DNA of 54,089 nt, filler included, from Squatina squatina (lineage: Eukaryota): assembly GCA_031763465.1 (NCBI GenBank). It is 3 parts of 3 records of this genome, joined end to end, with 100 filler letters (N's around TTAATTAATTAA, not from the genome) between each part and the next. Parts side by side here need not be neighbours in the genome. Positions count along the whole stretch, not along the records: positions 24,523 to 40,662 come from JARFOE010000222.1; 2 more parts are not named here. The stretch is one strand, 5' to 3'. Within the stretch, counting starts at the first letter, position 1; each line of letters begins with the position of its first letter. Under the pieces are notes generated by a model. The model saw only the letters and a program-made list of their open reading frames with translations. It had not been told where the DNA came from and searched no databases. Both the position numbers and the translations under genes were made by a program. Shown piece after piece: positions 39,132 through 39,359 of this stretch.

Positions 39132-39359
39132 GGTGCCATACGCACCAATTTGTCACTGCATAAGTGCTTTATCAGAGTAGAGGATGAGTTTGGGTCCTTT
39201 TGGACTGTTGATGAGGAGGAATTTAACAGTAGCCACCGCACTCAAAGAGGCCGACCTTGGAAATACTTTCCTGATGAGGGTATTGATGAGCATTTCTTGC
39301 ACCGAGACCTTTTGCTTGCTTATTCCACTGCTTTGCAAATTAATTCACCATCAGAATGA
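39132..39359 (+). other. FOXP2: Alternative forkhead exon homologous to FOXP1-ES exon 18b ([31 protein letters not shown]...), donor apparently lost, ORF reads to TGA at 39357-39359
   Basis: Phase-0 acceptor cccag|GGT compatible with exon 13; first 31 aa almost identical to recalled FOXP1 exon 18b; expected 170-nt end (39301) is followed by ccgaga rather than GT. Confidence 0.85.

Follow-up and report, generated by a model that had tools for sequence, protein, structure and literature searches.

In the FOXP2 locus of Squatina squatina (assembly GCA_031763465.1), we identified an exon starting at position 39132 on the + strand that, judged from its alignment and its place in a tree, is a homologue of FOXP exon B, the alternative forkhead exon described in FOXP1 as exon 18b in human and 16b in mouse. 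The window, meaning the whole stretch of DNA that was analysed, measures 54,089 nucleotides including filler and joins 3 parts of 3 records; the FOXP2 exons fall in the part from JARFOE010000222.1 (positions 24,523 to 40,662). The acceptor and the forkhead core of the exon are held, while the donor is lost, and a FOXP2 with such an exon is probably an unreported variant of a known system. We tentatively propose that the exon serves as a regulated alternative last exon, which would yield a shortened FOXP2 with altered DNA-binding specificity.

The exon follows a phase-0 acceptor (AG at 39130–39131), and its frame is open for 75 codons up to a TGA stop at 39357–39359. The part homologous to exon B covers 170 nt, to the homologous exon end at 39301 (57-codon extent), and FOXP2 exon 13 ends upstream in phase 0 at 35857. 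A protein search with the first 57 codons against 5.8 billion proteins, limited to proteins of 101–2000 residues, gave 120 matches among 122 candidates, the named ones being FOXP1, unassigned models and three nematode FoxP. The best match reached an E value of 1.8e-31, so the peptide is not a chance reading frame. Of the 114 sequences with a B start, 7 were gapped or cut; among the other 107, all ungapped, catshark FOXP1 exon B was the closest, with 44/57 identical residues, and mammals reached 43/57. In a 19-row tree, the exon at 39132 grouped with the B exons with a support of 100/100. An origin as a new tandem copy of FOXP2's own exon A was rejected (approximately unbiased test, p-AU 1.6e-6 for grouping with FOXP2 exon A), and the forkhead core showed 30/31 identical residues to exon B versus 20/31 to exon A. 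This core identity, measured against catshark FOXP1-B, matches that of the working exon A between FOXP1 and FOXP2 (29/31). A short open reading frame (ORF) search for a second FOXP2-type B exon returned 12 matches, all of FOXP1 type.

Within recognition helix 3, codons 1 and 5 of the exon encode G and T, where FOXP2 has N550 and H554. Both are base-contacting residues of FOXP2, and Santos et al. 2011 (PMC3002244) modelled their change as altering specificity. The phase-0 acceptor with its peptide, the N-to-G and H-to-T changes, the homology to FOXP1 exon 18b and the location in FOXP2 had all been put forward in a sequence-only reading of this DNA, and each of them stood up in our analysis.

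The host gene was identified from exons on both sides. Among the best 120 of 1085 matches to exon 11, all were named FOXP2 or unnamed and none FOXP1 or FOXP4, with chimaera FOXP2 at the top (93%), in line with a cartilaginous-fish origin. The exons at about 25981, 27921, 32085, 35553, 35756 and 39942 are all closer to FOXP2 than to FOXP1; exon numbers follow the human gene. Residues of exon 15 match chicken FOXP2 at 23/23 positions and catshark FOXP1 at 14/23, and are diagnostic of FOXP2, though not absolutely, since teleost FOXP1 reaches up to 17/23 (by eye). With FOXP2-type residues in the exons on either side, the exon B homologue can be placed inside FOXP2. Additionally, the stretch 38718–40662 is free of N and holds both the exon B homologue and exon 15, which agrees with the earlier statement that the two share one ungapped contig. 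Canonical exon A is absent among the called bases of the window. A pyrimidine tract and AG (38582–38583) are followed, after two further bases, by a gap of 132 N (38586–38717), whose size fits a 122-nt exon A plus 12 nt; we infer that exon A would lie there, 426 nt upstream of the exon B homologue, giving the FOXP1 order of A then B.

The homologous donor has been lost. The reading frame terminates in a Gln-stop at residue 57 in 13/13 genomic FOXP1-B ORFs, and likewise in two annotated models that extend beyond the exon, which implies a GT after exon base 170. In the Squatina exon, positions 39302–39303 are CC, and the phase-2 GT donor at exon base 170 used in the FOXP1-ES switch is not present. 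Three GT donors occur within the frame (exon ends 39206, 39228 and 39279), all of them out of phase and leading to a stop in exon 15. Because of the mutated homologous donor and the lack of a GT site in frame with exon 15, an in-frame swap of the FOXP1-ES type would be unavailable through a canonical donor, and the earlier proposal that the switch survives in its FOXP1 form was not borne out. The change of both bases of the invariant GT suggests that the donor loss is not fresh.

Constraint on the exon is uneven. Compared with catshark FOXP1-B, 1/31 codons differ in the core, 7/13 in the basic tail and 5/13 in the last block. The contrast between core and tail was significant (Fisher p 0.0003), and when the split point was left free in a best-split permutation (44 conserved columns), 5/2000 permutations did as well. 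The single core difference is conservative and is present in 4/107 FOXP1-B sequences; 12 of the 13 differences from catshark FOXP1-B need one base change. Within codons 32–44, no FOXP1-B sequence (n = 107) departs from the consensus by more than 3, whereas the Squatina exon has 7 changes in columns at least 90% conserved. The number of K/R residues over these codons is 4, versus 7 in catshark FOXP1-B, and the conserved basic motif after the forkhead core is not kept. The Pfam Forkhead match ends at residue 30, at the edge of conservation, and constraint thus appears to stop where the forkhead domain stops. A uniformly decaying fossil was rejected, as simulated neutral decay gave this pattern in 0/1500 runs at each of five divergences. 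At the nucleotide level, 4/18 bases differ from a mouse primer of Santos et al., all of them synonymous (by eye), although these changes may have arisen on the FOXP1 side. As a separate observation, the RGRPRK run, invariant in FOXP1 exon B, corresponds to 39246–39263 (+) in the window, where tryptophan replaces one arginine; we take this run to resemble an AT-hook.

The acceptor of the exon B homologue seems intact, with its AG, pyrimidine tract and a 153-nt zone free of AG. No other of the 3059 AG-free runs on the + strand, and none of the 2991 on the − strand, is as long, and AG was absent in 466/20000 composition shuffles of the zone. The upstream element holding the motif TTAAC lies 149 nt before the exon; in two genomic ORFs with FOXP1 exon B, the same element precedes the exon by 144 and 147 nt. 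Furthermore, YGCY motifs are clustered upstream, with 16 in 414 nt, whereas the window averages 4.6; the exon-B upstream region accounts for the 2 of 657 bins that reach 16, a number reached in 26/5000 shuffles. Long AG-free zones mark exons with distant branch points, often alternative ones, according to Gooding et al. 2006 (PMC1431707). Repression of FOXP1 exon 18b by MBNL, and MBNL repression from upstream YGCY sites, are described in passages found among PMC8189919, PMC13044900, PMC7776582 and PMC8339667.

Four of 24 sequencing runs (X16, X17, X15 and X1) were compared with positions 39215–39900, a range that begins downstream of the 5' half of the exon. None of the listed runs is on record as RNA, and the RNA origin of those compared is a guess. 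Among the 24 runs, 20 share part of 38718–40662 and none shares half of its words; small shares in runs that were compared in part or not at all (X15, X17–X20) were not used as evidence. Run X16 yielded one contig over 39311–39625 with 7 substitutions and one missing base at 39325, this gap being the only difference before 39475. Run X17 yielded one contig over 39504–39629 with 17 differences. X15 and X1 gave nothing on 39215–39900, a result that carries no evidential weight. These contigs show that two other organisms share a colinear, conserved intron between exon B and exon 15, and that no frame constraint acts on the read-through tail, as the base missing in X16 would move the stop.

A loop-out of exon B through an inverted repeat (38984–38992 with 39367–39375), which would also mask the branch-like site, was considered and rejected as evidence, its energy being not above chance. 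The 9-bp helix between the branch-like site and 39367–39375 reached ~0.95 in one local fold with an energy of −11.8; 128/150 random anchors and 248/500 shuffled anchors match the anchor's best partner. The 3' arm (39367–39375) is unchanged in X16, and folding of the downstream intron is not better than that of shuffled sequence (z 0.94).

Under the proposed use as a last exon, the exon-13 donor would join exon A by default, with MBNL-type proteins on the YGCY cluster repressing the distant-branch-point acceptor of exon B. When this repression is low, exon 13 would join exon B; the message could not exit at 39301, translation would continue for 18 codons to the stop at 39357, and the RNA would then be cut at an intronic polyadenylation (poly(A)) site. 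The shortened product would keep the zinc finger, the leucine zipper and the whole variant forkhead but would be without about 126 C-terminal residues and some of the basic motif that follows the forkhead domain. The lost part would include the C-terminal SUMO site, if its presumed placement is right; in FOXP1 this site is needed for repression, according to passages among PMC8189919, PMC13044900, PMC7776582 and PMC8339667. The variant forkhead is predicted to read different DNA, and the product could dimerise with full-length FOXPs, blunting or redirecting them. More broadly, we regard it as an evenly balanced proposition that the ancient A/B switch is still in use in the FOXP2 of cartilaginous fishes, here as a last exon and maybe in relatives as a full cassette, with FOXP1-ES-like specificity, that bony vertebrates lost it in FOXP2, and that the N-to-G change is older than the FOXP1/FOXP2 split.

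Several observations weigh against this proposal. A 20-nt guide for human exon 18b (PMC8189919) matches the window at 20/20 bases by eye, so the constraint may be on RNA and not on protein. Up to the relic donor, the exon is still exactly 57 codons long, like that of FOXP1, which would be expected of a cassette in use until recently. No splice joint or 3' end was found in the contigs from the four runs, whose RNA origin is guessed, over the compared range. The contigs of X16 and X17 both pass the first AATAAA, which X17 alters, and this first signal is therefore not the conserved end. Additionally, none of 149 FOXP2-type proteins has exon B, these including 8 chimaera models and no shark or ray, and none of the 120 search matches is named FOXP2, with no shark or ray FOXP2 among them. 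Cluster members of 7 proteins likewise contained no shark or ray FOXP2.

The rival use that survives best, though unlikely on balance, is a recently disabled cassette, in which a working in-frame swap existed in chondrichthyan FOXP2, the tail diverged after duplication, and the donor either disappeared in this lineage alone or is miscalled in this assembly; the exon would then be a young fossil here and a full switch in relatives. The exact 57-codon length without indel or stop, the match of donor positions +3 to +5 and the intact acceptor elements all fit this account, which explains the core conservation without a new mechanism. However, both invariant donor bases are changed, which requires time or one compound event, the 7 tail changes exceed the departure of any of the 107 FOXP1-B sequences, and no FOXP2-B isoform is annotated among the 149 FOXP2-type proteins, the 8 chimaera models included.

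We consider a poison exon improbable. In this case, exon B would be spliced in under MBNL-type control, and an out-of-frame donor or the retained 640-nt intron would bring a premature stop and decay, turning FOXP2 down, with the conserved half acting as an RNA signal. All 3 GT donors within the frame do give a stop in exon 15, the match to human FOXP1 18b extends to synonymous sites (20/20, by eye), the tail is unconstrained (1-nt gap in X16) and the poly(A) evidence is weak; nevertheless, the conservation edge coincides with the end of the folded domain, and the four differences from the mouse primer are all synonymous, with the reservation on their side of origin given above. Very unlikely is an intact in-frame swap through a GC donor giving full-length FOXP2-B. 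GC donors need a strong consensus, and none of the four GC sites from which the frame would continue into exon 15 (exon ends 39289, 39298, 39313 and 39334) resembles one, even though 39298 is 3 nt from the homologous end. Least probable of all is a misassembly joining a piece of the same animal's FOXP1 into FOXP2, for which a fragmented assembly with artificial joins, a gap 414 nt upstream of exon B, the lack of any contig of other runs bridging exon B to exon 15 and the teleost FOXP1 likeness of up to 17/23 (by eye) can be cited, but which is opposed by the single N-free stretch with a 23/23 FOXP2 exon 15, by the colinear intron in two other organisms and by an exon with 44/57 identity to a catshark FOXP1-B that itself has 53/57 to mammals, too diverged for an ordinary shark FOXP1-B. 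The sequence-only reading had likewise called a chimera unlikely, on the ground of the shared contig.

Use as a regulated last exon is separate from the question of where the exon came from. Exon B is bilaterian, predates the FoxP duplications and is stated to be lost in FoxP2, 3 and 4 in the relevant passages of Santos et al. 2011 (PMC3002244), where the vertebrates named are mouse, human and zebrafish. That the switch exon predates the FOXP1/FOXP2 duplication had thus already been concluded in that work, and our tree is compatible with retention as well as with a later copy. FoxP1/3 and FoxP2/4 fall on two sides of the first genome duplication in the part of PMC11998571 concerned with this event, which does not treat exon B, and in passages of PMC8373072 the exon-B event is listed for FOXP1 only. 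No report of exon B in FOXP2 was found in full-text literature searches, whose coverage stops short of subscription papers.

The exon was likely kept from the ancestral gene, and retention is the simplest origin. A later arrival from chondrichthyan FOXP1 by conversion or copying, which is independent of the exon's use, seems doubtful to us. Catshark FOXP1-B is the closest sequence (44/57 versus 43 for mammals), and the best tree pairs the exon with it (84/92, unstarred), a pairing as compatible with a later copy as with retention; the branch is long and the alignment has only 57 columns. A tree with all 13 FOXP1-B rows together, without the Squatina exon, was not rejected (p-AU 0.21). Moreover, the exon and its upstream element are at the homologous place, and retention needs no extra event.

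Features of the FOXP2 part of the window are collected below.

Table 1. Positions of the exon B homologue, its candidate processing signals and the surrounding FOXP2 exons
Feature	Position	Strand	Basis or comment
Forkhead core of the exon B homologue (31 codons; recognition helix with G and T)	39132–39224	+	30/31 identical to catshark FOXP1-B; Pfam Forkhead, residues 2–30
Exon B homologue, diverged basic tail to homologous exon end	39225–39301	+	Compared with catshark FOXP1-B
Read-through tail to stop codon	39302–39359	+	Open frame; 1 base missing at 39325 in run X16
Relic donor, +1/+2 = CC, +3 to +5 still matching donor consensus	39302–39307	+	Position from 13/13 genomic FOXP1-B ORFs
AG-exclusion zone (153 nt) with branch-point-like TTAAC (38987–38991, A at −142) and YGCY cluster	38977–39129	+	Motif reading
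AATAAA, candidate polyadenylation signal	39570–39575	+	Motif; first base changed in run X17
ATTAAA, second candidate polyadenylation signal	39814–39819	+	Motif
FOXP2 leucine-zipper exon (approximate start)	25981–26067	+	tblastn with chimaera and chicken FOXP2; donor read
FOXP2 exon, chimaera-type sequence	27921–28004	+	29/32 aligned columns to C. milii FOXP2, 19/39 to catshark FOXP1
FOXP2 exon 11	32085–32286	+	93% to C. milii FOXP2
FOXP2 exon 12, forkhead domain start	35553–35629	+	Sequence comparison
FOXP2 exon 13, constant forkhead exon, phase-0 donor	35756–35857	+	Identical to C. milii FOXP2, unlike FOXP1
Probable place of canonical exon A (exon 14) of the forkhead, N except for two bases	38584–38705	+	Pyrimidine tract, AG and AA before gap; size fit inferred
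FOXP2 exon 15, requires phase-2 upstream exon	39942–40011	+	23/23 to chicken FOXP2; N-free stretch with exon B

Elsewhere in the gene, downstream of exon 13 and ahead of exon A, lies a 20-codon cassette (36284–36343, +) with a match to an insert of a bat FOXP2 model (P0133). Its nearest consensus donor makes a frame-shifting exon of 55 nt, and it may for this reason be an old poison exon of FOXP2. The frame of exon 11 continues for 68 codons into the intron (32287–32489, +), and an unnamed FOXP2 ORF (P0127) continues at the same place; the FOXP2.10+ type isoform presumably reads on likewise past exon 11. Outside the gene, exons at 11687–24422 (+) resemble, in their translations, those of a neuron navigator (NAV) gene, for which Pfam gave no confirming match, and fragments at 12247–12483 and several other places resemble LINE (long interspersed nuclear element) retroelement coding sequence. 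The FOXP2 piece is bounded at 24423–24522 and 40663–40762 by two 100-base spacers of identical sequence, each with 44 N on either side of a 12-base core that has stops in all frames. They join neighbours artificially, so no synteny can be read from the neighbouring pieces.

The published history, in which exon B survives in FoxP1 only, is corrected by a FOXP2 copy whose splicing signals look live. If the copy was retained, the vertebrate N-to-G specificity change dates from before the FOXP1/FOXP2 split. The exon would represent a duplicated alternative exon caught part-way through loss or re-use, with the donor gone, the tail drifting and the acceptor and core held. This makes testable whether the 'pluripotency switch' was once common to FOXP paralogues, and how it was sorted after genome duplication.

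The closest known system is FOXP1 exon 18b/16b, the FOXP1-ES exon, which corresponds to FoxP1 isoform B (in passages of PMC3002244, and of the review PMC11701043 for Gabut et al. 2011). The Squatina exon shares with it the presumed position after exon A and the position before the next constant exon, the phase-0 acceptor, the 57-codon extent, G and T at N550/H554, 30/31 core residues, an upstream element about 145–150 nt before the acceptor and the YGCY cluster. It differs in its host, FOXP2, in the CC donor without an in-frame GT join and in a basic tail changed at 7/13 nearly invariant residues. The exons of Gooding et al. 2006 (PMC1431707), in the part describing distant branch points, likewise have a long AG-free zone before the acceptor that is linked to alternative splicing, whereas the branch point here is predicted from its motif only. 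FOXP2.10+, a short FOXP2 isoform of human and finch, is also a shortened FOXP2 made by alternative processing. This isoform is described as lacking a forkhead domain, whereas the product proposed here would retain the variant forkhead in full. In Drosophila, FoxP isoform B (exon 8) carries the homologue of exon B, including the H-to-T change, as its last exon; the residue at the 550 position is still N, and each of the two fly exons is terminal, according to PMC3002244. In comparison with Drosophila, terminal use of the Squatina exon would be secondary and would remove about 126 residues.
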